Source: Lingula anatina
Lineage: Eukaryota; Animalia; Brachiopoda
Direction of reading: 5' to 3'
Assembly: GCA_051362555.1 (NCBI GenBank)
Contig: CM120647.1
Coordinates: 13,926,651 to 13,990,650 of the forward strand
Length of the DNA: 64,000 nucleotides
Shown one piece after another: positions 1 through 54,114 of this stretch. The position numbers were made by a program, and so were the translations under genes. The notes under the pieces were generated by a model. That model had not been told where the DNA came from. It saw only the letters and a program-made list of their open reading frames with translations, and searched no databases. Positions within the stretch are counted from its first letter, which is position 1. Each line of letters begins with the position of its first letter.

Positions 1-510
1 GCTAAAATAGAATTGATACCAATGAGTTATACTCTTTAGTAGTAGGAGATGACCAATGTATTTGCATGACAAACCATTCGACAATTTTATAATGGTTTGA
101 ATTGTGTCTTTGGTTTTCAATCAAATTCGTATTGAACAATCCAGAAAAATATCACTCACCGGGCATACATAAGCCTGTCATTTCGGATACAGCTTCCCCA
201 TAACCACAAGCCAACTTGCCAGGTTCGTATGTTGCATCTACTAAGTTAATAGCAGGGCAATCTTTGGTAGCCTCCATCTCCCACGCAGCTATAGACATAT
301 TGGACATTGCTTCCCTTCTGAAATACTCTAACATGTTTTGGCCACAGCGTTCAACATGGTGAGCCAGAAGTGTCGTGTCATCATCCTCGGCATACAACTT
401 CATTTTCATCTTCAATACCAAGTTGACCTAAAAAGGTTAGGACATTATGCTTAAAACACTGCTTTCCATAGGTAAGACCTTCAAAATTAACCAACTTAAG
501 TCAGTGTTGG

Positions 511-604
<94 letters not shown>

Positions 605-3600
605 CTGAACACGGAGATCGGAAGTAGTTTGAGCCCTTGACATTAAATTGCTTGACAGTGGGTGTATTTCTTTTCAGCACTCGCCTTACACATAATGCCA
701 ATAACTTACATAATTGCCTTCTGCCATTGCATACACTCCAGTGACCATGCTGTGAGTAGACAGTTCTCCCTCACACACGTACTGTGACAACTGTGTCATG
801 TTTTGGCTCATGTCATTGGTGGCAAACCACATTTTTACACCTTCCTCCAATGATCCAAGGCAGCTTTGAGATACATTTGTTCCAGCATCAAGCTTGATGT
901 GCTGGGTTACCAAAATGCCTGAAACATAATTTGATGATCAGGAAAATTGCCCACTTTTCCATATTTTACATGTCAAAGGTAATGCTTTTGTTACAAATTG
1001 TTCAAATGTACAGAAAGCATTTAAAATGTTGAAAGGAACTGATTAAACTGCCGTTTTCTTAAATGCATACCTGGTGTTTCTCCCTTTGGTTCAACATTTG
1101 ACCCTGGAAATACAAAGATCATTTCAATACCATTGCCGATTCAAGGTCAATAAAATGCACCAACATGTTCAAATGTTTACGTGGGTACCAATGGAGCGCT
1201 CACTACAATTTACTTCAATTAAGCCTCATCTCAAAGACTGCGTGTATTTTGTCAATAAGTCAAAGTGTGGATACTATCACAATACTCTTTACTCTTGGCA
1301 AACATCGACTTAAACCTATATCTGAATGGTGTTATGTTTGTCAAAAAAATACTTACGGCTTTCATTGCAGAATCGGCCAAAGTAGCCATCATAGCATTTA
1401 CAGGAATAATCAACTTCACCCCTTGGCATACATTCACCCATGACACATCGGTTGGCATGACAAGCTCTTGGCCCTAAAACATCCATTTTGAATGTTTACA
1501 GTAACTATAGATCAAAAGTTTATTCACTGACTCGTTACTTCTTTCATGGCTTTTTGCATTGACAAGAGTGCAGAGATCAATTTTGAATGTAGATAACAAA
1601 CGGATTCGAACTTACTAAAATGACATTTGTCAGTCTTTTCCTCATAAATGTATCCTCTGGCAGTGCAGTTCTTTAAACCAGTGTAGTATTGGGATGGGCC
1701 AGAACTTCGTAGATCTGGGCATTTACCAGAAGTTGCATTGCCCATTCCTGAAACATTCATTAAACTCAATTAAAAATGCTTCGAAGTGTATCATTTGTGT
1801 CCCTTTAATATGACTTGCTGTCATCTATACATGACAGACGTGCTAACGGCCTTTCAATGACTCGTCTACACTCGATAAAATGAAATGTTCTATTTATATG
1901 TCATTATCTAATATTTCAATCTTCACCTGCTATTTGCAGTTGCACTTGTCCTATACTATTTTAAAATTATAAACTTAGTGGTGTCCTCAAAGGACCCATC
2001 ACTATTATTTTACATTTTGAGTTGAAACTCAAAACGATCTTTATTACCTCCAATGAGGTCTTCTTTTGGCAGGTTCGCCTGGAAGGCCTTTGCAAATTTA
2101 TTCAGGCAATCATTGTAGTCATCCTCAGAAACGGTTCCATTTTGAAGCACAATTCCAGATATAATCACCTTTGACTGAAAAAGTTCAAAAGTCGGTTACA
2201 AAGAAATAACAGCATCTACGTGCAATCAAGTAAGCCATTTTAATTTGATATCAATGTTCTTATTTGCTTAAACACAGAAGGATATGACAAAAAGACATAG
2301 CTCAAAATAAATTGCTTACCATGTGCCCAGAGGTCTCGAGGTGAACAAGCGGCCATCCTGGTACCCCCGTAATTACCATTTCATCAGAGTAGCAGGTCAC
2401 CATCAGCAAGTGATTGATAGCCTTGGCATGCTCTTCAATGCGCATGCTCATAATTGAACCATACGACATACTGCACTCTTCAGATATAGAAGTGTTCCTG
2501 GCACTGCTTGCATTAAACCACAGCACCACTATATTGGAGGGCGCTAAAATAGAATTGATACCAATGAGTTATACTCTTTAGTAGCAGGAGATGACCAATG
2601 TATTTGCATGACAAACCATTCGACAATTTTATAATGGTTTGAATTGTGTCTTTGGTTTTCAATCAAGTTCGTATTGAACAATCCAGGAAAATATCACTCA
2701 CCGGGCATACATAAGCCTGTCATTTCGGATACAGCTTTCCCATAACCACAAGCCAACTTGCCAGGTTCGTATGTTGCATCTACTAAGTTCATAGCAGGGC
2801 AATCTTTGGTAGCCTCCATCTCCCACGCAGCTATAGACATATTGGACATTGCTTCCCTTCTGAAATACTCTAACATGTTTTGGCCACAGCGTTCAACATG
2901 GTGAGCCAGAAGTGTCGTGTCATCATCCTCGGCATACAACTTCATTTTCATCTTCAATACCAAGTTGACCTAAAAAGGTTAGGACATTATGCTTAAAACA
3001 CTGCTTTCCATAGGTAAGACCTTCAAAATTAACCAACTTAAGTCAGCGTTGGTAATATATATATATATATATATATTTTTTTTTTTTTCTGAACACGGAG
3101 GTCAGAAGTAGTTTGAGCCCTTGACATTAAATTGCTTGACAGTGGGTGTATTTCTTTTCAGCACTCGCCTTACACATAATGCCAATAACTTACATAATTG
3201 CCTTCTGCCATTGCATACACTCCAGTGACCATGCTGTGAGTAGACAGTTCTCCCTCACACACGTACTGTGACAACTGTGTCATGTTTTGGCTCATGTCAT
3301 TGGTGGCAAACCACATTTTTACACCTTCCTCCAATGATCCAAGGCAGCTTTGAGATACATTTGTTCCAGCATCAAGCTTGATGTGCTGGGTTACCAAAAT
3401 GCCTGAAACATAATTTGATGATCAGGAAAATTGCCCACTTTTCCATATTTTACATGTCAAAGGTAATGCTTTTGTTACAAATTGTTCAAATGTACAGAAA
3501 GCATTTAAAATGTTGAAAGGAACTGATTAAACTGCCGTTTTCTTAAATGCATACCTGGTGTTTCTCCCTTTGGTTCAACATTTGACCCTGGAAATACAAA

Positions 3601-6600
3601 GATCATTTCAATACCATTGCCGATTCAAGGTCAATAAAATGCACCAACATGTTCAAATGTTTACGTGGGTACCAATGGAGCGCTCACTACAATTTACTTC
3701 AATTAAGCCTCATCTCAAAGACTGCATGTATTTTGTCAATAAGTCAAAGTGTGGATACTATCACAATACTCTTTACTCTTGGCAAACATCGACTTAAACC
3801 TATATCTGAATGGTGTTATGTTTGTCAAAAAAATACTTACGGCTTTCATTGCAGAATCGGCCAAAGTAGCCATCATAGCATTTACAGGAATAATCAACTT
3901 CACCCCTTGGCATACATTCACCCATGACACATCGGTTGGCATGACAAGCTCTTGGCCCTAAAACATCCATTTTGAATGTTTACAGTAACTATAGATCAAA
4001 AGTTTATTCACTGACTCGTTACTTCTTTCATGGCTTTTTGCATTGACAAGAGTGCAGAGATCAATTTTGAATGTAGATAACAAACGGATTCGAACTTACT
4101 AAAATGACATTTGTCAGTCTTTTCCTCATAAATGTATCCTCTGGCAGTGCAGTTCTTTAAACCAGTGTAGTATTGGGATGGGCCAGAACTTCGTAGATCT
4201 GGGCATTTACCAGAAGTTGCATTGCCCATTCCTGAAACATTCATTAAACTCAATTAAAAATGCTTCGAAGTGTATCATTTGTGTCCCTTTAATATGACTT
4301 GCTGTCATCTATACATGACAGACGTGCTAACGGCCTTTCAATGACTCGTCTACACTCGATAAAATGAAATGTTCTATTTATATGTCATTATCTAATATTT
4401 CAATCTTCACCTGCTATTTGCAGTTGCACTTGTCCTATACTATTTTAAAATTATAAACTTAGTGGTGTCCTCAAAGGACCCATCACTATTATTTTACATT
4501 TTGAGTTGAAACTCAAAACGATCTTTATTACCTCCAATGAGGTCTTCTTTTGGCAGGTTCGCCTGGAAGGCCTTTGCAAATTTATTCAGGCAATCATTGT
4601 AGTCATCCTCAGAAACGGTTCCATTTTGAAGCACAATTCCAGATATAATCACCTTTGACTGAAAAAGTTCAAAAGTCGGTTACAAAGAAATAACAGCATC
4701 TACGTGCAATCAAGTAAGCCATTTTAATTTGATATCAATGTTCTTATTTGCTTAAACACAGAAGGATATGACAAAAAGACATAGCTCAAAATAAATTGCT
4801 TACCATGTGCCCAGAGGTCTCGAGGTGAACAAGCGGCCATCCTGGTACCCCCGTAATTACCATTTCATCAGAGTAGCAGGTCACCATCAGCAAGTGATTG
4901 ATAGCCTTGGCATGCTCTTCAATGCGCATGCTCATAATTGAACCATACGACATACTGCACTCTTCAGATATAGAAGTGTTCCTGGCACTGCTTGCATTAA
5001 ACCACAGCACCACTATATTGGAGGGCGCTAAAATAGAATTGATACCAATGAGTTATACTCTTTAGTAGCAGGAGATGACCAATGTATTTGCATGACAAAC
5101 CATTCGACAATTTTATAATGGTTTGAATTGTGTCTTTGGTTTTCAATCAAGTTCGTATTGAACAATCCAGGAAAATATCACTCACCGGGCATACATAAGC
5201 CTGTCATTTCGGATACAGCTTTCCCATAACCACAAGCCAACTTGCCAGGTTCGTATGTTGCATCTACTAAGTTCATAGCAGGGCAATCTTTGGTAGCCTC
5301 CATCTCCCACGCAGCTATAGACATATTGGACATTGCTTCCCTTCTGAAATACTCTAACATGTTTTGGCCACAGCGTTCAACATGGTGAGCCAGAAGTGTC
5401 GTGTCATCATCCTCGGCATACAACTTCATTTTCATCTTCAATACCAAGTTGACCTAAAAAGGTTAGGACATTATGCTTAAAACACTGCTTTCCATAGGTA
5501 AGACCTTCAAAATTAACCAACTTAAGTCAGCGTTGGTAATATATATATATATATATATATTTTTTTTTTTTTCTGAACACGGAGGTCAGAAGTAGTTTGA
5601 GCCCTTGACATTAAATTGCTTGACAGTGGGTGTATTTCTTTTCAGCACTCGCCTTACACATAATGCCAATAACTTACATAATTGCCTTCTGCCATTGCAT
5701 ACACTCCAGTGACCATGCTGTGAGTAGACAGTTCTCCCTCACACACGTACTGTGACAACTGTGTCATGTTTTGGCTCATGTCATTGGTGGCAAACCACAT
5801 TTTTACACCTTCCTCCAATGATCCAAGGCAGCTTTGAGATACATTTGTTCCAGCATCAAGCTTGATGTGCTGGGTTACCAAAATGCCTGAAACATAATTT
5901 GATGATCAGGAAAATTGCCCACTTTTCCATATTTTACATGTCAAAGGTAATGCTTTTGTTACAAATTGTTCAAATGTACAGAAAGCATTTAAAATGTTGA
6001 AAGGAACTGATTAAACTGCCGTTTTCTTAAATGCATACCTGGTGTTTCTCCCTTTGGTTCAACATTTGACCCTGGAAATACAAAGATCATTTCAATACCA
6101 TTGCCGATTCAAGGTCAATAAAATGCACCAACATGTTCAAATGTTTACGTGGGTACCAATGGAGCGCTCACTACAATTTACTTCAATTAAGCCTCATCTC
6201 AAAGACTGCATGTATTTTGTCAATAAGTCAAAGTGTGGATACTATCACAATACTCTTTACTCTTGGCAAACATCGACTTAAACCTATATCTGAATGGTGT
6301 TATGTTTGTCAAAAAAATACTTACGGCTTTCATTGCAGAATCGGCCAAAGTAGCCATCATAGCATTTACAGGAATAATCAACTTCACCCCTTGGCATACA
6401 TTCACCCATGACACATCGGTTGGCATGACAAGCTCTTGGCCCTAAAACATCCATTTTGAATGTTTACAGTAACTATAGATCAAAAGTTTATTCACTGACT
6501 CGTTACTTCTTTCATGGCTTTTTGCATTGACAAGAGTGCAGAGATCAATTTTGAATGTAGATAACAAACGGATTCGAACTTACTAAAATGACATTTGTCA

Positions 6601-8020
6601 GTCTTTTCCTCATAAATGTATCCTCTGGCAGTGCAGTTCTTTAAACCAGTGTAGTATTGGGATGGGCCAGAACTTCGTAGATCTGGGCATTTACCAGAAG
6701 TTGCATTGCCCATTCCTGAAACATTCATTAAACTCAATTAAAAATGCTTCGAAGTGTATCATTTGTGTCCCTTTAATATGACTTGCTGTCATCTATACAT
6801 GACAGACGTGCTAACGGCCTTTCAATGACTCGTCTACACTCGATAAAATGAAATGTTCTATTTATATGTCATTATCTAATATTTCAATCTTCACCTGCTA
6901 TTTGCAGTTGCACTTGTCCTATACTATTTTAAAATTATAAACTTAGTGGTGTCCTCAAAGGACCCATCACTATTATTTTACATTTTGAGTTGAAACTCAA
7001 AACGATCTTTATTACCTCCAATGAGGTCTTCTTTTGGCAGGTTCGCCTGGAAGGCCTTTGCAAATTTATTCAGGCAATCATTGTAGTCATCCTCAGAAAC
7101 GGTTCCATTTTGAAGCACAATTCCAGATATAATCACCTTTGACTGAAAAAGTTCAAAAGTCGGTTACAAAGAAATAACAGCATCTACGTGCAATCAAGTA
7201 AGCCATTTTAATTTGATATCAATGTTCTTATTTGCTTAAACACAGAAGGATATGACAAAAAGACATAGCTCAAAATAAATTGCTTACCATGTGCCCAGAG
7301 GTCTCGAGGTGAACAAGCGGCCATCCTGGTACCCCCGTAATTACCATTTCATCAGAGTAGCAGGTCACCATCAGCAAGTGATTGATAGCCTTGGCATGCT
7401 CTTCAATGCGCATGCTCATAATTGAACCATACGACATACTGCACTCTTCAGATATAGAAGTGTTCCTGGCACTGCTTGCATTAAACCACAGCACCACTAT
7501 ATTGGAGGGCGCTAAAATAGAATTGATACCAATGAGTTATACTCTTTAGTAGCAGGAGATGACCAATGTATTTGCATGACAAACCATTCGACAATTTTAT
7601 AATGGTTTGAATTGTGTCTTTGGTTTTCAATCAAGTTCGTATTGAACAATCCAGGAAAATATCACTCACCGGGCATACATAAGCCTGTCATTTCGGATAC
7701 AGCTTTCCCATAACCACAAGCCAACTTGCCAGGTTCGTATGTTGCATCTACTAAGTTCATAGCAGGGCAATCTTTGGTAGCCTCCATCTCCCACGCAGCT
7801 ATAGACATATTGGACATTGCTTCCCTTCTGAAATACTCTAACATGTTTTGGCCACAGCGTTCAACATGGTGAGCCAGAAGTGTCGTGTCATCATCCTCGG
7901 CATACAACTTCATTTTCATCTTCAATACCAAGTTGACCTAAAAAGGTTAGGACATTATGCTTAAAACACTGCTTTCCATAGGTAAGACCTTCAAAATTAA
8001 CCAACTTAAGTCAGCGTTGG

Positions 8021-8119
<99 letters not shown>

Positions 8120-11100
8120 CTGAACACGGAGATCGGAAGTAGTTTGAGCCCTTGACATTAAATTGCTTGACAGTGGGTGTATTTCTTTTCAGCACTCGGC
8201 TTACACATAATGCCAATAACTTACATAATTGCCTTCTGCCATTGCATACACTCCAGTGACCATGTTGTGAGTAGACAGTTCTCCCTCACACACGTACTGT
8301 GACAACTGTGTCAGGTTTTGGCTCATGTCATTGGTGGCAAACCACATTTTTACACCTTCCTCCAATGATCCAAGGCAGCTTTGAGATACATTTGTTCCAG
8401 CATCAATCTTGATGTGCTGGGTTACCAAAATGCCTGAAACATAATTTGATGATCAGGAAAATTGCCCACTTTTCCATATTTTACATGTCAAAGGTAATGC
8501 TTTTGTTACAAGTGTTCAAATGTACAGAAAGCATTTAAAATGTTGAAAGGAACTGATTAAACTGCCGTTTTCTTAAATGCATACCTGGTGTTTCTCCCTT
8601 TGGTTCAACATTTGACCCTGGAAATACAAAGATCATTTCAATACCATTGCCGATTCAAGGTCAATAAAATGCACCAACATGTTCAAATGTTTACGTGGGT
8701 ACCAATGGAGCGCTCACTACAATTTACTTCAATTAAGCCTCATCTCAAAGACTGCGTGTATTTTGTCAATAAGTCAAAGTGTGGATACTATCACAATACT
8801 CTTTACTCTTGGCAAACATCGACTTAAACCTATATCTGAATGGTGTTATGTTTGTCAAAAAAATACTTACGGCTTTCATTGCAGAATCGGCCAAAGTAGC
8901 CATCATAGCATTTACAGGAATAATCAACTTCACCCCTTGGCATACATTCACCCATGACACATCGGTTGGCATGACAAGCTCTTGGCCCTAAAACATCCAT
9001 TTTGAATGTTTACAGTAACTATAGATCAAAAGTTTATTCACTGACTCGTTACTTCTTTCATGGCTTTTTGCATTGACAAGAGTGCAGAGATCAATTTTGA
9101 ATGTAGATAACAAACGGATTCGAACTTACTAAAATGACATTTGTCAGTCTTTTCCTCATAAATGTATCCTCTGGCAGTGCAGTTCTTTAAACCAGTGTAG
9201 TATTGCGATGGGCCAGAACTTCGTAGATCTGGGCATTTACCAGAAGTTGCATTGCCCATTCCTGAAACATTCATTAAACTCAATTAAAAATGCTTCGAAG
9301 TGTATCATTTGTGTCCCTTTAATATGACTTGCTGTCATCTATACATGACAGACGTGCTTACGGCCTTTCAATGACTCGTCTACACTCGATAAAATGAAAT
9401 GTTCTATTTATATGTCATTATCTAATATTTCAATCTTCACCTGCTATTTGCAGTTGCACTTGTCCTATACTATTTTAAAATTATAAACTTAGTGGTGTCC
9501 TCAAAGGACCCATCACTATTATTTTACATTTTGAGTTGAAACTCAAAACGATCTTTATTACCTCCAATGAGGTCTTCTTTTGGCAGGTTCGCCTGGAAGG
9601 CCTTTGCAAATTTATTCAGGCAATCATTGTAGTCATCCTCAGAAACGGTTCCATTTTGAAGCACAATTCCAGATATAATCACCTTTGACTGAAAAAGTTC
9701 AAAAGTCGGTTACAAAGAAATAACAGCATCTACGTGCAATCAAGTAAGCCATTTTAATTTGATATCAATGTTCTTTTTTGCTTAAACACAGAAGGATATG
9801 ACAAAAAGACATAGCTCAAAATAAATTGCTTACCATGTGCCCAGAGGTCTCGAGGTGAACAAGCGGCCATCCTGGTACCCCCGTAATTACCATTTCATCA
9901 GAGTAGCAGGTCACCATCAGCAAGTGATTGATAGCCCTGGCATGCTCTTCAATGCGCATGCTCATAATTGAACCATACGACATACTGCACTCGTCAGATA
10001 TAGAAGTGTTCCTGGCACTGCTTGCATTAAACCACAGCACCACTATATTGGAGGGCGCTAAAATAGAATTGATACCAATGAGTTATACTCTTTAGTAGCA
10101 GGAGATGACCAATGTATTTGCATGACAAACCATTCGACAATTTTATAATGGTTTGAATTGTGTCTTTGGTTTTCAATCAAGTTCGTATTGAACAATCCAG
10201 GAAAATATCACTCACCGGGCATACATAAGCCTGTCATTTCGGATACAGCTTCCCCATAACCACAAGCCAACTTGCCAGGTTCGTATGTTGCATCTACTAA
10301 GTTCATAGCAGGGCAATCTTTGGTAGCCTCCATCTCCCACGCAGCTATAGACATATTGGACATTGCTTCCCTTCTGAAATACTCTAACATGTTTTGGCCA
10401 CAGCGTTCAACATGGTGAGCCAGAAGTGTCGTGTCATCATCCTCGGCATACAACTTCATTTTCATCTTCAATACCAAGTTGACCTAAAAAGGTTAGGACA
10501 TTTTGCTTAAAATACTGCTTTCCATAGGTAAGACCTTCAAAATTAACCAACTTAAGTTAGCGTTGGTAATATATATATATATATATATTTTTTTTTTTTT
10601 TCTGAACACGGAGATCGGAAGTAGTTTGAGCCCTTGACATTAAATTGCTTGACAGTGGGTGTATTTCTTTTCAGCACTCGCCTTACACATAATGCCAATA
10701 ACTTACATAATTGCCTTCTGCCATTGCATACACTCCAGTGACCATGTTGTGAGTAGACAGTTCTCCCTCACACACGTACTGTGACAACTGTGTCAGGTTT
10801 TGGCTCATGTCATTGGTGGCAAACCACATTTTTACACCTTCCTCCAATGATCCAAGGCAGCTTTGAGATACATTTGTTCCAGCATCAAGCTTGATGTGCT
10901 GGGTTACCAAAATGCCTGAAACATAATTTGATGATCAGGAAAATTGCCCACTTTTCCATATTTTACATGTCAAAGGTAATGCTTTTGTTACAAGTGTTCA
11001 AATGTACAGAAAGCATTTAAAATGTTGAAAGGAACTGATTAAACTGCCGTTTTCTTAAATGCATACCTGGTGTTTCTCCCTTTGGTTCAACATTTGACCC

Positions 11101-13050
11101 TGGAAATACAAAGATCATTTCAATACCACTGCCGATTCAAGGTCAATAAAATGCACCAACATGTTCAAATGTTTACGTGGGTACCAATGGAGCGCTCACT
11201 ACAATTTACTTCAATTAAGCCTCATCTCAAAGACTGCGTGTATTTTGTCAATAAGTCAAAGTGTGGATACTATCACAATACTCTTTACTCTTGGCAAACA
11301 TCGACTTAAACCTATATCTGAATGGTGTTATGTTTGTCAAAAAAATACTTACGGCTTTCATTGCAGAATCGGCCAAAGTAGCCATCATAGCATTTACAGG
11401 AATAATCAACTTCACCCCTTGGCATACATTCACCCATGACACATCGGTTGGCATGACAAGCTCTTGGCCCTAAAACATCCATTTTGAATGTTTACAGTAA
11501 CTATAGATCAAAAGTTTATTCACTGACTCGTTACTTCTTTCATGGCTTTTTGCATTGACAAGAGTGCAGAGATCAATTTTGAATGTAGATAACAAACGGA
11601 TTCGAACTTACTAAAATGACATTTGTCAGTCTTTTCCTCATAAATGTATCCTCTGGCAGTGCAGTTCTTTAAACCAGTGTAGTATTGCGATGGGCCAGAA
11701 CTTCGTAGATCTGGGCATTTACCAGAAGTTGCATTGCCCATTCCTGAAATATTCATTAAACTCAATTAAAAATGCTTCGAAGTGTATCATTTGTGTCCCT
11801 TTAATATGACTTGCTGTCATCTATACATGACAGGCATGTGCTTACGGCCTTTCAATGACTCGTCTACACTCGATAAAATGAAATGTTCTATTTATATGTC
11901 ATTATCTAATATTTCAATCTTCACCTGCTATTTGCAGTTGCACTTGTCCTATACTATTTTAAAATTATAAACTTAGTGGTGTCCTCAAAGGACCCATCAC
12001 TATTATTTTACATTTTGAGTTGAAACTCAAAACGATCTTTATTACCTCCAATGAGGTCTTCTTTTGGCAGGTTCGCCTGGAAGGCCTTTGCAAATTTATT
12101 CAGGCAATCATTGTAGTCATCCTCAGAAACGGTTCCATTTTGAATCACAATTCCAGATATAATCACCTTTGACTGAAAAAGTTCAAAAGTCGGTTACAAA
12201 GAAATAACAGCATCTACGTGCAATCAAGTAAGCCATTTTAATTTGATATCAATGTTCTTTTTTGCTTAAACACAGAAGGATATGACAAAAAGACATAGCT
12301 CAAAATAAATTGCTTACCATGTGCCCAGAGGTCTCGAGGTGAACAAGCGGCCATCCTGGTACCCCCGTAATTACCATTTCATCAGAGTAGCAGGTCACCA
12401 TCAGCAAGTGATTGATAGCCTTGGCATGCTCTTCAATGCGCATGCTCATAATTGAACCATACGACATACTGCACTCGTCAGATATAGAAGTGTTCCTGGC
12501 ACTGCTTGCATTAAACCACAGCACCACTATATTGGAGGGCGCTAAAATAGAATTGATACCAATGAGTTATACTCTTTAGTAGCAGGAGATGACCAATGTA
12601 TTTGCATGACAAACCATTCGACAATTTTATAATGGTTTGAATTGTGTCTTTGGTTTTCAATCAAGTTCGTATTGAACAATCCAGGAAAATATCACTCACC
12701 GGGCATACATAAGCCTGTCATTTCGGATACAGCTTCCCCATAACCACAAGCCAACTTGCCAGGTTCGTATGTTGCATCTACTAAGTTCATAGCAGGACAA
12801 TCTTTGGTAGCCTCCATCTCCCACGCAGCTATAGACATATTGGACATTGCTTCCCTTCTGAAATACTCTAACATGTTTTGGCCACAGCGTTCAACATGAT
12901 GAGCCAGAAGTGTCGTGTCATCATCCTCGGCATACAACTTCATTTTCATCTTCAATACCAAGTTGACCTAAAAAGGTTAGGACATTATGCTTAAAACACT
13001 GCTTTCCATAGGTAAGACCTTCAAAATTAACCAACTTAAGTCAGCGTTGG

Positions 13051-13138
<88 letters not shown>

Positions 13139-16100
13139 TTTTCTGAACACGGAGATCGGAAGTAGTTTGAGCCCTTGACATTAAATTGCTTGACAGTGGG
13201 TGTATTTCTTTTCAGCACTCGCCTTACACATAATGCCAATAACTTACATAATTGCCTTCTGCCATTGCATACACTCCAGTGACCATGTTGTGAGTAGACA
13301 GTTCTCCCTCACACACGTACTGTGACAACTGTGTCAGGTTTTGGCTCATGTCATTGGTGGCAAACCACATTTTTACACCTTCCTCCAATGATCCAAGGCA
13401 GCTTTGAGATACATTTGTTCCAGCATCAAGCTTGATGTGCTGGGTTACCAAAATGCCTGAAACATAATTTGATGATCAGGAAAATTGCCCACTTTTCCAT
13501 ATTTTACATGTCAAAGGTAATGCTTTTGTTACAAGTGTTCAAATGTACAGAAAGCATTTAAAATGTTGAAAGGAACTGATTAAACTGCCGTTTTCTTAAA
13601 TGCATACCTGGTGTTTCTCCCTTTGGTTCAACATTTGACCCTGGAAATACAAAGATCATTTCAATACCACTGCCGATTCAAGGTCAATAAAATGCACCAA
13701 CATGTTCAAATGTTTACGTGGGTACCAATGGAGCGCTCACTACAATTTACTTCAGTTAAGCCTCATCTCAAAGACTGCGTGTATTTTGTCAATAAGTCAA
13801 AGTGTGGATACTATCACAATACTCTTTACTCTTGGCAAACATCGACTTAAACCTATATCTGAATGGTGTTATGTTTGTCAAAAAAATACTTACGGCTTTC
13901 ATTGCAGAATCGGCCAAAGTAGCCATCATAGCATTTACAGGAATAATCAACTTCACCCCTTGGCATACATTCACCCATGACACATCGGTTGGCATGACAA
14001 GCTCTTGGCCCTAAAACATCCATTTTGAATGTTTACAGTAACTATAGATCAAAAGTTTATTCACTGACTCGTTACTTCTTTCATGGCTTTTTGCATTGAC
14101 AAGAGTGCAGAGATCAATTTTGAATGTAGATAACAAACGGATTCGAACTTACTAAAATGACATTTGTCAGTCTTTTCCTCATAAATGTATCCTCTGGCAG
14201 TGCAGTTCTTTAAACCAGTGTAGTATTGCGATGGGCCAGAACTTCGTAGATCTGGGCATTTACCAGAAGTTGCATTGCCCATTCCTGAAATATTCATTAA
14301 ACTCAATTAAAAATGCTTCGAAGTGTATCATTTGTGTCCCTTTAATATGACTTGCTGTCATCTATACATGACAGGCATGTGCTTACGGCCTTTCAATGAC
14401 TCGTCTACACTCGATAAAATGAAATGTTCTATTTATATGTCATTATCTAATATTTCAATCTTCACCTGCTATTTGCAGTTGCACTTGTCCTATACTATTT
14501 TAAAATTATAAACTTAGTGGTGTCCTCAAAGGACCCATCACTATTATTTTACATTTTGAGTTGAAACTCAAAACGATCTTTATTACCTCCAATGAGGTCT
14601 TCTTTTGGCAGGTTCGCCTGGAAGGCCTTTGCAAATTTATTCAGGCAATCATTGTAGTCATCCTCAGAAACGGTTCCATTTTGAAGCACAATTCCAGATA
14701 TAATCACCTTTGACTGAAAAAGTTCAAAAGTCGGTTACAAAGAAATAACAGCATCTACGTGCAATCAAGTAAGCCATTTTAATTTGATATCAATGTTCTT
14801 TTTTGCTTAAACACAGAAGGATATGACAAAAAGACATAGCTCAAAATAAATTGCTTACCATGTGCCCAGAGGTCTCGAGGTGAACAAGCGGCCATCCTGG
14901 TACCCCCGTAATTACCATTTCATCAGAGTAGCAGGTCACCATCAGCAAGTGATTGATAGCCCTGGCATGCTCTTCAATGCGCATGCTCATAATTGAACCA
15001 TACGACATACTGCACTCGTCAGATATAGAAGTGTTCCTGGCACTGCTTGCATTAAACCACAGCACCACTATATTGGAGGGCGCTAAAATAGAATTGATAC
15101 CAATGAGTTATACTCTTTAGTAGCAGGAGATGACCAATGTATTTGCATGACAAACCATTCGACAATTTTATAATGGTTTGAATTGTGTCTTTGGTTTTCA
15201 ATCAAGTTCGTATTGAACAATCCAGGAAAATATCACTCACCGGGCATACATAAGCCTGTCATTTCGGATACAGCTTCCCCATAACCACAAGCCAACTTGC
15301 CAGGTTCGTATGTTGCATCTACTAAGTTCATAGCAGGGCAATCTTTGGTAGCCTCCATCTCCCACGCAGCTATAGACATATTGGACATTGCTTCCCTTCT
15401 GAAATACTCTAACATGTTTTGGCCACAGCGTTCAACATGGTGAGCCAGAAGTGTCGTGTCATCATCCTCGGCATACAACTTCATTTTCATCTTCAATACC
15501 AAGTTGACCTAAAAAGGTTAGGACATTTTGCTTAAAATACTGCTTTCCATAGGTAAGACCTTCAAAATTAACCAACTTAAGTTAGCGTTGGTAATATATA
15601 TATATATATATTTTTTTTTTTTTCTGAACACGGAGATCGGAAGTAGTTTGAGCCCTTGACATTAAATTGCTTGACAGTGGGTGTATTTCTTTTCAGCACT
15701 CGCCTTACACATAATGCCAATAACTTACATAATTGCCTTCTGCCATTGCATACACTCCAGTGACCATGTTGTGAGTAGACAGTTCTCCCTCACACACGTA
15801 CTGTGACAACTGTGTCAGGTTTTGGCTCATGTCATTGGTGGCAAACCACATTTTTACACCTTCCTCCAATGATCCAAGGCAGCTTTGAGATACATTTGTT
15901 CCAGCATCAAGCTTGATGTGCTGGGTTACCAAAATGCCTGAAACATAATTTGATGATCAGGAAAATTGCCCACTTTTCCATATTTTACATGTCAAAGGTA
16001 ATGCTTTTGTTACAAGTGTTCAAATGTACAGAAAGCATTTAAAATGTTGAAAGGAACTGATTAAACTGCCGTTTTCTTAAATGCATACCTGGTGTTTCTC

Positions 16101-18072
16101 CCTTTGGTTCAACATTTGACCCTGGAAATACAAAGATCATTTCAATACCACTGCCGATTCAAGGTCAATAAAATGCACCAACATGTTCAAATGTTTACGT
16201 GGGTACCAATGGAGCGCTCACTACAATTTACTTCAATTAAGCCTCATCTCAAAGACTGCGTGTATTTTGTCAATAAGTCAAAGTGTGGATACTATCACAA
16301 TACTCTTTACTCTTGGCAAACATCGACTTAAACCTATATCTGAATGGTGTTATGTTTGTCAAAAAAATACTTACGGCTTTCATTGCAGAATCGGCCAAAG
16401 TAGCCATCATAGCATTTACAGGAATAATCAACTTCACCCCTTGGCATACATTCACCCATGACACATCGGTTGGCATGACAAGCTCTTGGCCCTAAAACAT
16501 CCATTTTGAATGTTTACAGTAACTATAGATCAAAAGTTTATTCACTGACTCGTTACTTCTTTCATGGCTTTTTGCATTGACAAGAGTGCAGAGATCAATT
16601 TTGAATGTAGATAACAAACGGATTCGAACTTACTAAAATGACATTTGTCAGTCTTTTCCTCATAAATGTATCCTCTGGCAGTGCAGTTCTTTAAACCAGT
16701 GTAGTATTGCGATGGGCCAGAACTTCGTAGATCTGGGCATTTACCAGAAGTTGCATTGCCCATTCCTGAAATATTCATTAAACTCAATTAAAAATGCTTC
16801 GAAGTGTATCATTTGTGTCCCTTTAATATGACTTGCTGTCATCTATACATGACAGGCATGTGCTTACGGCCTTTCAATGACTCGTCTACACTCGATAAAA
16901 TGAAATGTTCTATTTATATGTCATTATCTAATATTTCAATCTTCACCTGCTATTTGCAGTTGCACTTGTCCTATACTATTTTAAAATTATAAACTTAGTG
17001 GTGTCCTCAAAGGACCCATCACTATTATTTTACATTTTGAGTTGAAACTCAAAACGATCTTTATTACCTCCAATGAGGTCTTCTTTTGGCAGGTTCGCCT
17101 GGAAGGCCTTTGCAAATTTATTCAGGCAATCATTGTAGTCATCCTCAGAAACGGTTCCATTTTGAATCACAATTCCAGATATAATCACCTTTGACTGAAA
17201 AAGTTCAAAAGTCGGTTACAAAGAAATAACAGCATCTACGTGCAATCAAGTAAGCCATTTTAATTTGATATCAATGTTCTTTTTTGCTTAAACACAGAAG
17301 GATATGACAAAAAGACATAGCTCAAAATAAATTGCTTACCATGTGCCCAGAGGTCTCGAGGTGAACAAGCGGCCATCCTGGTACCCCCGTAATTACCATT
17401 TCATCAGAGTAGCAGGTCACCATCAGCAAGTGATTGATAGCCTTGGCATGCTCTTCAATGCGCATGCTCATAATTGAACCATACGACATACTGCACTCGT
17501 CAGATATAGAAGTGTTCCTGGCACTGCTTGCATTAAACCACAGCACCACTATATTGGAGGGCGCTAAAATAGAATTGATACCAATGAGTTATACTCTTTA
17601 GTAGCAGGAGATGACCAATGTATTTGCATGACAAACCATTCGACAATTTTATAATGGTTTGAATTGTGTCTTTGGTTTTCAATCAAGTTCGTATTGAACA
17701 ATCCAGGAAAATATCACTCACCGGGCATACATAAGCCTGTCATTTCGGATACAGCTTCCCCATAACCACAAGCCAACTTGCCAGGTTCGTATGTTGCATC
17801 TACTAAGTTCATAGCAGGGCAATCTTTGGTAGCCTCCATCTCCCACGCAGCTATAGACATATTGGACATTGCTTCCCTTCTGAAATACTCTAACATGTTT
17901 TGGCCACAGCGTTCAACATGGTGAGCCAGAAGTGTCGTGTCATCATCCTCGGCATACAACTTCATTTTCATCTTCAATACCAAGTTGACCTAAAAAGGTT
18001 AGGACATTTTGCTTAAAATACTGCTTTCCATAGGTAAGACCTTCAAAATTAACCAACTTAAGTTAGCGTTGG

Positions 18073-18160
<88 letters not shown>

Positions 18161-18599
18161 CTGAACACGGAGATCGGAAGTAGTTTGAGCCCTTGACATT
18201 AAATTGCTTGACAGTGGGTGTATTTCTTTTCAGCACTCGCCTTACACATAATGCCAATAACTTACATAATTGCCTTCTGCCATTGCATACACTCCAGTGA
18301 CCATGCTGTGAGTAGACAGTTTTCCCTCACACACGTACTGTGACAACTGTGTCAGGTTTTGGCTCATGTCATTGGTGGCAAACCACATTTTTACACCTTC
18401 CTCCAATGATCCAAGGCAGCTTTGAGATACATTTGTTCCAGCATCAAGCTTGATGTGCTGGGTTACCAAAATGCCTGAAACATAATTTGATGATCAGGAA
18501 AATTGCCCACTTTTCCATATTTTACATGTCAAAGGTAATGCTTTTGTTACAAGTGTTCAAATGTACAGAAAGCATTTAAAATGTTGAAAGGAACTGATT
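1..18599 (-). repeat. Intragenic coding tandem array, unit 2481-2546 bp, about 7.4 near-identical copies
   Basis: Unit starts at 1, 2543, 5027, 7511, 10057, 12541, 15082 and 17563; identity ends at 18599. Exons in the first copy: A 918-710 (209 nt), B 427-160 (268), C 2543-2320 (224), D 2174-2048 (127), E 1747-1616 (132), F 1473-1357 (117, EGF: CHANRCVMGECMPRGEVDYSCKCYDGYFGRFC), G 1103-1071 (33). The sum is 1110 nt = 370 aa, all with AG/GT borders. Confidence 0.97.
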
Positions 18600-21500
18600 T
18601 ATCTGCTTGTTGAGATACTGATAAACAACACTGTTTCACTTTCATGATATTGGTTGTTGATTTCATCATCATCATCATCATTATAATAATAATAATAATG
18701 ATGATGATGAACTTTTGTCTGTATTATAGAACTGTTTCAATAGCTCTTTGTTCCTACTAGCATATGGTTTTTGAGCTGTATGCATACCTGGCGTTTTTTT
18801 GTCTTGTCCATCTATTTGACCTATATTAATTGACGAAAAAAGTGAAAAATAGAATTATCAAATGAACAAAAACATATAACCTCATTTTCTCATAAGTCCA
18901 TGTCACCAATGAGGCCTTAAGGAAGTTGTAAGAAGGCTGAGAATTTCTGTAACAACGGTTGGGCTTCTAAAAATACATCAAGTACCATCAACAATACAGA
19001 ATACACCATGCTTGAAATTTGCTATTTGAATACAGCATACTTGCGTACTTAGGGTAGTAATTCATCATTAAAAATCCATCTGAACGTTACTGAACCAAAA
19101 TCAAAGAGCTATCTTTTGTAACAAACGGAATTGAAATGCACATATTAACTTCCCATGATGATGACTTGGTGCTGGATTATGTACATTTTTGAACTGATTT
19201 ATAGTTCTACTTCATTCCTAATATTTAACATCAGTATTTATGTCATATACAGACTTGACATTTAATATGGAATATTTCAGTTTCGAAGGTATGCCTAGGT
19301 AAAAATGCATTCTTTTTTCAAAAAAACTCCGATCTCATATAAGATATTGCATGGAGAGGTGTGTAGTCAGGTTTGTCGCTTCCAATTAACTGAATACCAG
19401 GTTTGTTGCGCTGCTGCATTATGTAATATGCAGTGATTTAATTGGGTAGTGCTCCTTTGGGCAGGTCAAAGCTTGGCTTTGGCAAAGCATGGTTCTGTCA
19501 AAAAAGTATCCATATGTCGGGAACTACTGCATAGAAGAATTTGAAATTTTGCATGCAAGTGGTCGGTTTTGCAAGGTGTAAAATGAACTAGCGGTGCTCT
19601 GCAAATTTATTAATCTGTGGCAGAAGTCAGACATTGCAAGACAGATAATTGCGCCAAACGAAACAGTCCGCACAGTTTTATAGAGTAATGCCCAGACTGA
19701 TGTACCTACACAGAGTCCACCACCAATGTATTGAAATCTTACCACCAGGGTACAGGACCCACTGTCTGTCGGGATATGCTGTTGCAACTAAGCAAAAACT
19801 ACCCAGACCGTTCAGAATTAGGGGTAAATTGCCACTAAAACGCATTTTTCAAGGCCCTTAGCGAACACCAAACTGGTTTTACCTGGTTAGAATACCAGAC
19901 GAGCTCAGGGGAACCCACTGTAAACAGCAAAACATCGTTATATGTTTCTCTAATGAATTGGGGACCCTGATCGTTTCCGAGTTGAACACTGAAACCTCGT
20001 GGCTTTCTTTATTGAGGTCAGATTTCAGCTGTACCGCTCAACCAGTCAAAACAGAGTTTACAGACATCCAGAAGAGGCCAACGACTAAGCGTGTGCCGCG
20101 TCTAAAGTGACTAAGGTCATTAACAGCGTCAGTAATTGGAGTAGATACCACATTGGTGCCAAAACGCCAAAACACCAATGATGGTCATCCACGAAAACCT
20201 GAACCAGATCAAATAAAGGAATAATCTGGGAACCACTTGACTATCATTTGATAGGGGGCACCTTAGGAACAATTTTAGGTTGCACGGTGAAATTGCCGGT
20301 ACAAACATAGCACTTTTAATAGCAGATTACTTACAGAACCAAGGGAATGAGCAGCTACCTTGGTAATCAAAATCGCCATATTGGAACCACACAGACAATA
20401 TGTGGATAGGCCATTACTCGCCGAACCAATGGCCTACATGTCCTACAACAAAACTGGACCAAATTGGACAGAGTTTGACCGATGCCTTCCAGATTATTCC
20501 AGATTGAACTCTAAAAACTTAACCCAAGGAATGCCTTACCACTTGAGAGCGCTGGTAGCAGACAGAAGAGGTCAAGCGTACAGCCACCGTTACTGTGCCT
20601 AGACACTGACATGGGGGTTCTTTGTGAAGCGTGTATCTCTTTTACATAAAAAATAATTTGAAAAATATGGAGATCCAAAATATCTCTTTTAATTGTTGTC
20701 GTATGACATAGAATAGGCAATGTGTTTTTGTTTGCTTCTCTGGCAAATTCCATTAATGAACTGATGTCACAATGACATCAAAGAGATAATTAAAAGTTAT
20801 TAAAACACGATTTTAATCCTTATTTTCATTTATCAGTCAGCAAAATAGGAAAAAAATGATGAAAAATGATTTGGAAAAAAATATTCCATATTAAATGTCA
20901 AGTCTGTATGATCATTATTTAACACAAGATAAAACAAATGTTATGCTGTTTGCTATATCATCTGTCAGGCAGTGGGTAACAACTGACGTTAGAAAGCTGA
21001 GAGGTAACCTTTAGCTACACTGCAAGCTAATGGTATGAAAACATTTTCAACTTGTGCTCAATAAGTAACATCTATGATCCAAATACCAAGCAAATGAACA
21101 ATTTTGCTCATTATTATTTATAGTTTTAACCAATCCTGGTGTAGTATACCTGGGCCGTCAGTTCCATTTATGGGCATTGATGTTGTTGTTGTCGTTGTTG
21201 CCTGAGTGGGTTTTGGGGTAGGTTCCACTTCACACGTTTTCCCACTGTAACCACTGTTACAGTCACAGCGGTAGCTATTAAGCAGGTCTTCACATGCCCC
21301 GCCATTTTTGCATGGTTTCAGACGTGCACAGTCATCGATATCTGAAAGGAAAGAGTTGAAAACTTATAAATCAGGTGTGAAGGAATATATATCTGAGCGC
21401 ACCAGGAATGGCGGTATCGATTCTGTACCCCCCCCCCCCCCTTCTTATGGCTTCCTGCTCTTGTGACTGATGTTCTTTAAAAACATCCCTGCCCTTCCCC

Positions 21501-21942
21501 CGCTCACCCCCTCCCCTCCTTGCTCCTGTGTCTTAATATTATCATGCATATAAACGCAAGGAGGTATTTCATACACATAATAGAATAGAAATAATATGAA
21601 ACAAATCAAGCCAATAAACTATGAATGGTCAGCATGCACTGCTTTAGTTAATATAATGACGGTGATATTTATATATTTAATGTTATGGTGATATTTAGGT
21701 ATTTGATATTTATATATTTAATAATTTGATAATGTACACATGAACCGAGAGTCGGTGGAGCGTGAGTTCCCAGAAACGCATGTAAACCACTACTATTAGT
21801 TTCTTATACGACTTCAATAAATTCGACATACCAAGGGATAAACTAAATAAATCAAGCGATCTACCACAAAGGAGCTTTAAACTGCTCCTTTCTTCAGAAT
21901 TTTGGTCGTTAGTTTAACCTACTCACCTGACCTACTTTTTTG

Positions 21943-22020
<78 letters not shown>

Positions 22021-25000
22021 AGGAAGCCAGCAGATAATCTGTACAAAAACATAGTTTTTGAGGTAATATATTAAACGTATTTTAAATGTACTTTGGTAAT
22101 TCTCTTAGTTATACTATTGGAAACTATATGCTGGCATTCGGTCGACTTTTGTGGCAACAAAATAAGCTTCATATGCATCTTTAATAATACCTGATAGGCA
22201 GTCGTCGTCAGGATCATACCCAGGGACACAATCACAGCGGTATTGTTTAGCCAGATTTTTACACGTCCCACCGTTATGGCATGTCACTCCCTCGCAGTAG
22301 TTCACCTCTACAAAAATAGATTGATCCACTCATCACCGATCTCTTTAACAAAAAAAATCCGTTTTTAATACAAAGTTGCTTCACACATGAAATATAGCCC
22401 TATGTAACTTTAACAGTCTGTAACAAAAGCAGTGCTAACACAACAATGATGTACAATACATGCTTTCCCAACGCATCTATAGCTACTACTAATGCCCTCT
22501 TTAAAACACGCAAAAAAAAGAAAATAAAAAAAATAATAAATTTGGAAAAGGCTGAAAAAACACACTGTAATATGTTTAATGTAAAATTCTACAAACAAAA
22601 TATGCAATATATCATCAATGGTCTTCGGAATTTTTAAGCAAACTTGGTTAATTCTATAGTAGATTGCGTTTTTGTCTAATGTATAACTTGCCTTCCACTT
22701 TCACAGACTCTTTGATGACTTTCGTGAATATGTTAGCTAGCGTTCCTATCAGCGACGGCTGTTCAGTGGAGGTAGCATTGGTGGAGGCATTCTCGGCGGC
22801 CTTCATGTCTTGCTCTATTTTTATAATAGCCTCAATGATAACATTGGCAACTAAGTTGACGAAGTTAACCTAAAATGAATAAAAACCGTCATTGTTAATA
22901 ATACAAGTTAATCAAAAAAGACGTTGACCACTTAGAAGACGAGGTTAACCCAAAATAAAAAAAAAATTAATAATAAACTGTCACCGTTATTAATGCAAGT
23001 TAATCAATAAAGCCGTTGGCTGCTAAGTGGACGAGGTTACCTGAAATAAAACCCTGTTAACTTTTGGTGATAGGAATAGCTTAGGTGTACAATTTTCACG
23101 TGCATGATACGTAATCAACCATGCAATGTCGCGGGGATGGTGCAGGTGTAACGAAACTGAAGGTCTGTGTAACAGAAGGCCCGCCCTCCATTTCGTTATA
23201 ATGGTTAGGGTTAGCCTGATATAAGAGGGACAAAATCTAGGGCGAGGCCTATCTGTACAAATGCATGGGGAAGGGACTCTCCATCATGGGGACACTCTGT
23301 CACGTTACACCGGTGCATTGGCCATCAGCGTTATCAACGATATCATGCCGTACAGAGCGAAACATTGCACCACCTGCCGGTGGCTGATTTCACAGCTGTG
23401 AGAATAAACTTCAACCTCATTCTCACCCCCACCCCACCCCGAGCGGACATTCCCTACCGTGTTCTTTTCTTTTGAATGTGCCCCACATTGCAAATTATGG
23501 CCATTTTACGTGTCATCTTACTTTAAAATAAACGGATCAAGTTATGTTTTTCTTGATTTACACTGAAATTTAGAATTATATTACAGACTTGACATTTAAT
23601 ATGGAATATTTTTTTCCAAATCATTTTTATCAATTTTTTTTCTACTTTGCTGACTGATAAATGAAAATAAAGATTAAAATCGTGTTTTAATAACTTTTAA
23701 TTATCTCTTTGATATCATTGTGACATCAGTTCATTAATGGAATTCGCCATAGAAGCAAACAAAAACACATTGCCTATTCTATGTCATACGACAACAATTA
23801 AAAGAGATATTTTGGATCTCCATATTTTCCAAATTATTTTCTGTAAAAGAGATACACGCCTCACAAAGAACCCCCATGTCAGTGTCTAGGCACAGTAACG
23901 GTCGCTGTTACGCTTGATCTCTTCTGTTTGCTACCAGCGCTCTCAAGTGGCAAGGCATTCCTTGGGTTAGGTTTTTAGAGTTCAATCTGGAATAACATTC
24001 CAGGCATCGGTCAAAATCTGTCCAATTTGGTCCAGTTTTGTTGTAGGACATGTAGGCCATTGATTCGGCGAGTAATGGCCTACCCACATATTGTCTATGT
24101 GGTTCAAATATGGCGATTTTGATTACCAAGGTAGCTGCTCATTCCCTTGGTTTTGTAAGTAATCTGCTATTAAAAGTGCTATGTGTGTACCGGGAATTCC
24201 ACCGTGCAACCTAAAATTGTTCCTAAGGTGCCACCTATCAAATGATAGTCAAGTGGTTCTCAGATTATTCCTTTATTTGATCTGGTTCAGGTTTTCGTGG
24301 ATGACCATCATTGGTGTTTTGGCACCAATGTGGTATCCACTCCAAATACTGACGCTGTTAATGACCTTAGTCACTTTAGACGCGGCACACGCTTAGTCGT
24401 TGGCCTCTTCTGGATGTCTGTAAACTCTGTTTTGACTGGTTGAGCGGTACAGGTGAAAGCTGACCTCAATAAAGAAAGTCACGAGGTTTCAGTGTTCAAC
24501 TCAGAAACGATCAGGGTCCCCAATTCATTAGAGAAACACACAACGATGTTTTGCTGTTAACAGTGGGTTCCCCTGAGGTTGTCTGGTATTCTAACCAGCT
24601 AAAACCAGTTTGGTGTTCGCTAAGAGCCTTGAAAAATGCGTTTTGGTGGCAATTTACCCCTCATTCTGAACGGACTGGGTGTTTTTTGTTTAGTTGCAAC
24701 AGCATATCCTGAAAGACAGTGGGTCCTGTACTCTGGTGGTAAGATTTTAATACATTGGGTGTGGCCTCTATGTAGGTACATCAGTCTGGGCATTACTCTA
24801 TAAAACTGTGCGGACCGTTTCGTTTGGCGCAATTTTCTGTCTGGCAATGTCTGTCTTTTTCGCGCCATTCTGCCACAGATAAACAAATATGCAGAGCACT
24901 GCATAGCTCATTTTACACCATGCAAAACCGACCACCTGCATGCAAAATTTCAAATTCTTCTATGCAGTAGTTGCCGACATATGGATACTTTTTTGACAGA

Positions 25001-26366
25001 ACCATGCTTTGCCAAAGCCAAGCTTTGACCTGCCCAAAGGAGCACTACCCAATTAAATCATTGCATATTACATAATGCAGCAGCGCAACTAACCTGGTAT
25101 TCAGTTAATTGGAAGCGACACACCTGACTACACACTTCTCCATTCACATATCTTATATGAGATCGGAGTTTTTTTTTAAAGAATGCATTTTTACCTAGGC
25201 ATACCTTCGAAACTGAAATATTCCATATTAAATGTCAAGTCTGTAGATAACGTTTTCTATATACATGTGCAAAAAAAATCTTTCAAACATGAGGGAAAAA
25301 GCGTTCTTATTCAGCTCTAAAACATATCCACTTATGATCACTCGGAAAGTAATCTGTTCATGACACGGCATTACTTTTTACACTCACTTCTGTCTGCGGT
25401 GGCGCTGCCGTGGCATTTGTATCATTACTAGGTGGTGCCACAGTAGCGTTGCTAACAGGTGCCGTGGCTTTAGCTACCTCCATAAATGCTGCCTTTGCAA
25501 ATGCCAGTAAATACTCCAATATCAGACTCCCATTTCTGAAATATTGAAAAAAGACTGATACTTAAAAAAAACATTTTCTATAAAAATGCTTAGTACTCTC
25601 GGGGAATGGCAAGATCAGCCAACGATATTTGTAGGGCTTCAATTTTTTTTTTTTTTTTTTTTTTTGAAATATGTCTCCAAGATTAACAGATCAATCACCC
25701 CACACATGCTTGCATTGTTGGTCATAAAAAGTACATAAGTTAGCTCATACTTTTCTTGATATATACTTTAATATATGTCCCACACATATCAAAAAGACTG
25801 ACCTAACTGCCGTGACTTCACATGATTGGAAAGATCCATTTAACGAACTGCTTTGATAGATAGATTGAATCTGAAATTAGATGCCATATAATCATTGCTA
25901 CATTAAATTAATTTGTTATTGGTTTATGCGAAGTTCACCTTCGTAAATGACACAACGTTATAATTCTTGGAACAGATATGTGGGTAGAATACACAGAGAG
26001 AGAGAGAGAGCGAGAGAGAGAGAGAGATGGATTAATCAAATCTACAAATAACGATATAGAAAGAACTCTTTACAGAAAAAAAGGTACGCGCGAATGCACA
26101 GAGGATGTTTGGCCCTCTGTATTTACCCTCACATGCACAGTTTTACATTATAGTTACCACTAAAACAAGCAAAGAACTAGCACGTGTACACTGACAGCGA
26201 TGCACCATGACGGAAACACATGAGGCATACGACCAAGACATGTACTCACCCCATTACAGAAAGACACAGTGAGATTGATATACTCGGGAGAAGAGGTGTT
26301 GGCCAACTCGGGAGTGTAATCAGAATTCACAGTGAGACTGTTGTTAAAGACGGCTGAAAAAAAGGA

Positions 26367-26432
<66 letters not shown>

Positions 26433-54077: not shown

Positions 54078-54114
<37 letters not shown>

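Follow-up and report, generated by a model that had tools for sequence, protein, structure and literature searches.

In human LPA, the 5.5-kb kringle IV-2 (KIV-2) unit carries two exons that encode one kringle of a secreted protein, and 1 to >40 copies of it are found in populations (PMC4378929). MUC16 has 19 SEA-containing repeats, the count of which was long wrong (PMC10829539), and SEA cleavage and shedding turn MUC1 into a releasable decoy barrier (PMC6491460). GSVIV is the cleavage motif of enteropeptidase, one of the type II transmembrane serine proteases (TTSPs) (PMC2958558). Among egg-coat proteins, repeats 3–22 of abalone VERL, whose ZP-N repeats are 153 aa long, are homogenised by concerted evolution, and sea-urchin EBR1 is an ADAMTS-type protein with CUB/TSP1 repeats (PMC9265791). 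Here, we compare with these systems a gene of the brachiopod Lingula anatina that is encoded on the minus strand of a 64,000-nt stretch (assembly GCA_051362555.1, contig CM120647.1, positions 13,926,651 to 13,990,650; hereafter the window) and that contains a tandem array of a 2.5-kb unit.

We propose, with a probability of about 0.55, that the array forms the central, repeated part of a gene for a type II, mucin-like, self-cleaving and shed barrier or decoy glycoprotein, and that it grew by unequal crossing-over. The gene structure taken alone is very probably correct: the exon chain, the open frame, the domain order, and the copies' near-identity and mosaic pattern are seen directly in the DNA.

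The tandem array and its seven-exon module

Self-BLAST placed the array at positions 1–18606, where 7.4 units of 2481–2547 bp follow one another with 97–99% unit-to-unit identity; the array continues past the left end of the window. In transcript order, each unit carries exons B (209 nt), C (268 nt), D (224 nt), E (127 nt), F (132 nt), G (117 nt) and A (33 nt), which sum to 1110 nt and have entry phases 1-0-1-0-1-1-1. A preliminary description of the 'satellite' had proposed just such a minus-strand module, amplified in frame at least 7.4-fold, and all of its counts were correct. AG/GT borders flank 51/51 array exons (8 copies each of B and C, and 7 each of D, E, F, G and A), and the joined frame contains no stop in 2748 codons; as a control, the two alternative frames of one unit carry 21 and 26 stops. 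All 7 full modules encode 370 aa with 18 Cys and 9 N-glycosylation sequons, again as described. Since each unit starts and ends in phase 1, gain or loss of a whole unit keeps the frame.

The GC content is 0.455 in exons vs. 0.326 in introns. A splice-site matrix was trained on the unique upstream exons alone and then applied to an array unit. The 7 module acceptors ranked 1, 2, 3, 4, 6, 10 and 13 among the 143 AGs of the unit, and the 7 donors ranked 1, 3, 5, 9, 11, 27 and 28 among its 152 GTs.

In the first unit to be transcribed, exons B (18266–18474, phase 1-0) and C (17722–17989, phase 0-1) encode the two halves of a first orphan domain, the latter with a Cys hairpin. Further copies of B start at 15937, 13456, 10915, 8433, 5886, 3402 and 918, and those of C at 15508, 12967, 10483, 7937, 5453, 2969 and 427. 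The first half of orphan domain 2 is encoded by exon D (17340–17563, phase 1-0), followed by exon E (17068–17194, phase 0-1) and by exon F (16634–16765, phase 1-1) with the Cys hairpin of this domain. Exon G (16375–16491, phase 1-1) encodes an EGF domain, and exon A (16089–16121, phase 1-1) the linker to the next module.

RNA reads placed on one unit numbered 2, 0, 4 and 0 from the 12.4, 9.5, 11.1 and 8.4 million records of four runs. Every base of these 6 reads could be assigned to an exon bin to within ∼2 bases, and bins of intron only received none, with exons making up 45% of the stretch on which the reads were placed. Joints were read from bin depth converted to bases, and the depths fit joints G–A (2 reads), A–B (2 reads) and E–F (1 read). 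The X12 pair spans all of exon A two times, together with the neighboring end of G (twice) and the beginning of B (once), in keeping with G–A–B splicing; its first mate maps to the plus strand, as most stranded libraries would give for a minus-strand RNA. Of the X18 reads, one fits A–B, another fits E–F, and two lie inside B and C. An A–B joint with exon A, and not with the related exon A′ that precedes the array, is a module-to-module joint, although a back-spliced circle would yield the same joint. Joints B–C, C–D and D–E are seen in P0002, a protein model from this locus, and F–G in the genomic sequence alone. Splicing of the module exons is therefore weakly shown: of the 7 junctions for which spliced reads had been called for, G–A, A–B and E–F fit reads in 2/4 runs, but F–G has no direct read.

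Between copies, introns were about as alike as exons, as the preliminary description had noted (20/1368 variable columns in introns and 12/1110 in exons; Fisher p 0.48). That all indels fall in introns also held (4/4 sites, two of them in homopolymer or (AT)n tracts), but the argument is weak (chance p about 0.09), and avoidance of exons by indels was rejected as coding evidence. The full units are all distinct (7/7), and pairs differ at 1–19 sites (up to 0.8%), in exons and introns alike, which agrees with a very recent amplification or homogenisation. Because 19/25 variable columns are common to at least two units, the variants are not scattered errors. The further apart two units lie in the array, the more they differ (Spearman 0.79; p 0.0024 by permutation of 5040 orders), and 32/171 informative pairs fail the four-gamete test. 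The (AT)n tracts alternate between long and short in units 1–6 and the exons of units 2 and 4 are identical, which suggests a two-unit duplication step. The copy pattern is that expected from unequal crossing-over and conversion.

In this, the Lingula array resembles KIV-2, in which near-identical multi-exon units also lie head to tail with their introns inside a gene and share variants between copies via duplication or gene conversion (PMC4378929). Like KIV-2, it is a tandem multi-exon coding unit with near-identical introns, but the Lingula unit is 2.5 kb long and has 7 exons and three domains, and its protein has a predicted membrane anchor.

The number of copies could be inflated by the assembly in an otherwise real gene, if the arrays of two haplotypes were placed one after the other. 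Units 1–4 vs. 5–7 differ at 12–19 sites and units within these groups at 1–10, the heterozygosity of Lingula is 1.6% (PMC4595640), and the older RefSeq model holds <1 module. However, the 7 full units all differ from one another, unit 5 mixes the two groups as a mosaic, several sites in unit 8 switch back, and the reads fit a module-to-module joint. We consider such a joining quite improbable, and it would still leave 3–4 copies in each array.

It is far less probable still, to the point of being discounted, that the array is a satellite without coding function or a duplicated, defunct fragment of a gene, whose frame is open only because the copies are young. A pN/pS of 0.8 among the copies and a non-significant confinement of indels to introns are what this would predict. 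Against it stand an intact 5′ gene joined to the array in frame, the spliced polyA reads, the strong splice sites, and a relative of exon C, an unnamed 85-aa open reading frame (ORF; P0003), that is 57% identical and keeps 4/4 Cys. These data support that the array is a coding, spliced, multi-exon module that was homogenised very recently.

The single-copy exons and a predicted type II layout

Upstream of the array lie 14 single-copy exons, which start with an ATG at 30702, reach to 18788 and join the first exon B in frame. The preliminary description, confined to 1–18599, had left out this 5′ part of the gene (18788–30702). From the ATG, the whole chain reads 3454 codons with no stop, of which the array encodes aa 706–3454; the C-terminus lies left of the window. 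The protein order is cytosolic tail, membrane segment, SEA1, Thr-rich mucin stretch, SEA2, two EGF domains, A′ and the array. Residues 123–3454 follow the membrane segment within the window, in agreement with the ectodomain of >3000 aa that had been predicted, and the 3454 aa contain 78 sequons.

The first coding exon (30655–30702; all exons of this part are on the minus strand) gives the same N-terminus as in P0002. The second (30029–30347) encodes tail, a Lys-rich patch and the only strongly hydrophobic segment in 3454 aa (about aa 98–122), which precedes both SEAs and is a predicted type II anchor; a weaker hydropathy peak (1.7) lies at aa 236–257, inside SEA1. The N-terminal tail (∼97 aa) contains two YxxPhi motifs together with the Lys-rich patch. 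As basic residues precede the hydrophobic stretch and no signal peptide-like segment was seen at the N-terminus, we infer an N-in, C-out (type II) topology.

A 30-nt juxtamembrane exon (29502–29531) leads into SEA1 (27584–29128), whose three exons (29128–29013, 28415–28348 and 27768–27584) encode a GSVIV motif at aa 196. The next exon (26772–27281) is of mucin type, with 170 aa rich in Thr, Ser and Pro (PTS, 64%). SEA2 (22692–26353) is encoded by four exons (26353–26250, 25870–25803, 25535–25388 and 22869–22692) and has GSLIL at aa 485. An EGF exon (22191–22307; Pfam EGF E 2.1e-07) and an exon with a Ca-binding-like EGF and a Thr-rich linker (21150–21341; Pfam EGF E 1.3e-08) follow. The 33-nt exon A′ (18788–18820), also present in the RefSeq model P0002, links the unique part to the array; it is identical to A at 19/33 nt and, judged from this alignment, is a diverged older homolog of exon A.

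The first exon of SEA1 scored under the Pfam SEA cut-off (E 0.0019), and SEA2, scored on P0002 256–326, above it (E 7.7e-12). The two align with a score of 110.5, which 0/500 shuffles reach. A homolog search with the SEA2 region returned 0/75 candidates. A GC donor of identical phase closes the last exon of each SEA (at 27584 and 22692), suggesting that SEA1 and SEA2 arose from an old duplication that kept a GC-AG intron.

At 22872–23051, just upstream of exon 22869–22692, lie two decayed 92-bp tandem copies that resemble the acceptor and start of this exon. Two introns of the gene contain, in opposite orientation, the 93.5% identical copies of a 1.7-kb element (19242–20916 and 23574–25251). 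It has terminal inverted repeats and no ORF >95 codons, and is likely a non-autonomous DNA transposon.

By analogy, the membrane SEA mucins, such as MUC16, would come closest to the Lingula protein in how it works, yet it departs from the topology of that family. Shared with MUC16 and MUC1 are SEA with a G/S motif, a PTS-rich stretch (at 170 aa, short for a mucin), one membrane segment and a giant repeated ectodomain (PMC10829539, PMC6491460). Their anchor is C-terminal, whereas the one strongly hydrophobic segment of the Lingula protein precedes the SEAs; a further anchor may lie beyond the window. Its repeats, unlike those of MUC16, are rich in Cys and N-glycan sites, contain EGF and are not recognisably SEA by sequence.

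A short N-terminal tail, a type II anchor (predicted here from hydropathy and charge) and a juxtamembrane SEA with GSVIV are also the layout of the TTSPs, such as enteropeptidase and TMPRSS6 (PMC2958558). Since the distal end of a type II protein is its C-terminus, which here is beyond the window, the array may be a spacer, that is, a very long and length-variable stalk for a head such as an enteropeptidase-like type II protease or a lectin. In contrast with the TTSPs, the 3454 aa contain a mucin stretch and the array in place of CUB, LDLa and protease modules: CUB, LDLa and trypsin had no match in any exon scanned, and a mucin stretch with >2700 aa of repeats is absent from the excerpted description of the TTSP family (PMC2958558). 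The terminal amidase of P0002 replaces exons F, G and A and looks like an annotation fusion. We regard a distal head with the array as its spacer as unlikely.

Module domains, public annotation and neighboring genes

Exon G scored above the Pfam EGF cut-off (E 4.4e-05); the remainder of the module gave no Pfam match above cut-off, and no SEA match. Exons B+C and D+E+F encode six Cys each and their phase-0 introns align. The global score of domain 1 vs. domain 2 was matched by 22/2000 shuffles, and local comparison found no similarity (BLASTP E 8.7; hhalign of the Cys hairpins E 0.1). By the global alignment with shuffles only, the two appear to be ancient duplicates. We propose nine disulfides per module, three in each orphan domain, with a pairing drawn from Cys spacing.

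A single-sequence model of B–E had a predicted local distance difference test (pLDDT) score of 42 and a predicted template modeling score of 0.36, and folding exon C together with P0003 gave a pLDDT of 50. Modeled domain 1 has the order strand-helix-helix-strand-strand-helix. A fold search with the model returned ferredoxin-like chains, among them HMG-CoA reductase (Z 7.0), Trop2 (Z 5.3), PCDH15 MAD12 (6eet; Z 5.7, root-mean-square deviation (rmsd) 3.8, 94 aligned) and, among unrelated rows, the MUC16 SEA (1ivz; Z 5.4, rmsd 3.5, 100 aligned). As all fold matches are below Z 8, a SEA-like fold is no more than a lead, and domain 2 is barely covered. Foldseek gave 0 matches at E 0.001 (HMG-CoA reductase at E 0.06 or worse), a PDB sequence search gave 3 unrelated rows (E 0.68–1), and the ESM Atlas had no usable match for P0002 448–724 or 448–606. 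The module is thus weakly predicted to consist of an EGF domain and two related, Cys-bridged orphan domains with a ferredoxin/SEA-like fold. Its layout of domain plus Cys hairpin may resemble that of the ferredoxin-like/GCC2_GCC3 region of invertebrate SVEP1-like proteins.

Exon C matched XP_013418787.1 (LOC106179617, Lingula anatina, uncharacterised, 290 aa), 1 of 17 search candidates. This RefSeq entry and the gene share their locus, with P0001 showing 96% identity over 247 aa, and P0002 (1076 aa) is the longer member of the cluster. P0002 independently contains exons 1 to 3, a portion of the mucin exon, 3/4 SEA2 exons and, once, A′-B-C-D-E, and then passes from exon E into the amidase. The public model thus contains 0.75 module once and is without SEA1, both EGFs and the array. 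P0002 also carries the 30-nt juxtamembrane exon twice. The P0002 and LOC106179617 protein models are probably a chimeric annotation, and we infer that they stem from collapse or mis-joining of the array rather than from masking. The earlier expectation that repeat masking would hide the gene therefore needs amending: the array itself is missing from the model, but the annotation does hold the 0.75 module fused to the amidase. Module DNA words were present at 0.64–0.80 in 7 runs from 4 samples and 3 studies, one of which may be the source of the window.

Among 1.84 billion representative proteins, the module without its EGF had 2 matches, P0001 and P0003. The latter ends just beyond the exon border at which exon C ends, and a profile search with exon C and P0003 recovered P0003 alone (1/6 candidates). 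In a literature search, for which most subscription papers and supplements were outside coverage, 0 papers contained the accessions of the gene and it appeared undescribed; nor was a type II SEA/EGF mollusc protein, or a report of concerted evolution in brachiopods describing this gene, found. The locus may be listed under a different identifier in the supplementary expression and shell-proteome data that accompany the Lingula genome papers.

The preliminary description had likened the array to VERL and EBR1. The analogy stands for the mode of repeat evolution, with a very large extracellular tandem-repeat protein and VERL-type homogenisation of repeats (PMC9265791), but not for the domains (SEA, mucin and EGF) or the predicted type II topology. 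The Lingula unit is 370 aa long, with an EGF domain and two further domains that have no Pfam match and an alpha/beta model of low confidence. No Pfam match was found for CUB or TSP1 in the module, the upstream exons or P0001/P0002 (E up to 1–10), or for ZP in the exons scanned. Nothing is in favor of membership in either group.

A gamete or self/non-self receptor of this kind, in which homogenised repeats provide multivalent, species-specific binding, would fit the homogenised repeats, as in VERL repeats 3–22, the nearly orphan module, and the very few reads across the four runs (restricted expression). It would also fit the comparison with P0002, which differs from all window copies at 8/275 module residues vs. 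1/350 in the unique part (Fisher p 0.013). Such an excess may hint at rapid change or allele-wide sweeps but is no test of selection, and it is also expected when different array copies or alleles are compared. With VERL and EBR1 being egg-coat proteins with other domains (PMC9265791), we hold a receptor of their type to be improbable.

Elsewhere in the window, six AIG1/GIMAP GTPase exons form a cluster at 39974–63096 (Pfam AIG1 E 1.5e-14 to 1.7e-38), on the plus (39974–40648, 54257–55702 and 62443–63096) and minus (45120–45815, 50244–50891 and 58056–58775) strands. The segments 39494–40615 and 61976–63087 are 82% identical duplicates. On the plus strand at 52352–55702, an AIG1 GTPase and a C-terminal Hint module (Pfam Hint E 3.5e-32) share one ORF, and the preceding ORFs (52352–52834 and 53194–54126) are MACPF/stonustoxin-like by eye alone, Pfam giving no match of that kind. 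A transcript that joined all of these by splicing would encode a pore-former-like, GIMAP and Hint protein.

Proposed mechanism and significance

Under the reading we prefer, a shed barrier or decoy, the 370-aa module was multiplied with its introns, most likely via recent unequal crossing-over. The predicted type II anchor would hold SEA1, which, from its motif, is likely to cleave itself at G/S. As in MUC1, the ectodomain, once cleaved, would stay bound non-covalently and could be released. The mucin stretch and the at least 7.4 disulfide-braced and N-glycosylated modules would form a long stalk, with length changing in steps of 370 aa, and such a sheddable stalk over the cell might act as a barrier or decoy, by analogy to MUC1 and MUC16.

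Several points weigh against this reading. The RNA support is thin: 6 reads fall in 2/4 runs, and the joint table, which needs 3 reads, listed none. The F–G joint is without a direct read and is absent from P0002, and an abundant coat of epithelia in general would be expected to give more reads on a collapsed unit. Purifying selection is not detectable among the copies (9 non-synonymous and 3 synonymous changes). The fold model has low confidence and its top matches, the HMG-CoA reductases, are within background range; the module domains are unlike the SEAs of the gene itself, in that 34–430 of 500 shuffles reach their alignment scores. Units 1–4 and 5–7 could be two joined haplotypes, and the unseen C-terminus could carry a catalytic or binding head that is the true business end of the protein.

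Rather unlikely, in our view, is that the protein is a brachiopod type II recognition receptor of a new class, a VERL-like solution that arose independently on a mucin scaffold. In that case, the orphan domain pair, within a seven-exon cassette, would have swept through the array allele by allele; its fast-changing and length-variable surface would bind sperm, self/non-self determinants or microbes, and SEA self-cleavage would release it.

These data suggest that (i) a 2.5-kb 'satellite' with 98–99% identity can constitute most of a protein-coding gene, and the public model for this locus is probably a collapsed fragment joined to its neighbor; and (ii) the Lingula gene extends the intragenic arrays of LPA and MUC16 by an invertebrate case with seven exons and three domains. 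Amplification of this kind is already known; the predicted type II mucin layout and the orphan domain pair set the gene apart. Should tissue and allele data implicate gametes or immune cells, the gene would become a testable candidate for a brachiopod recognition receptor.

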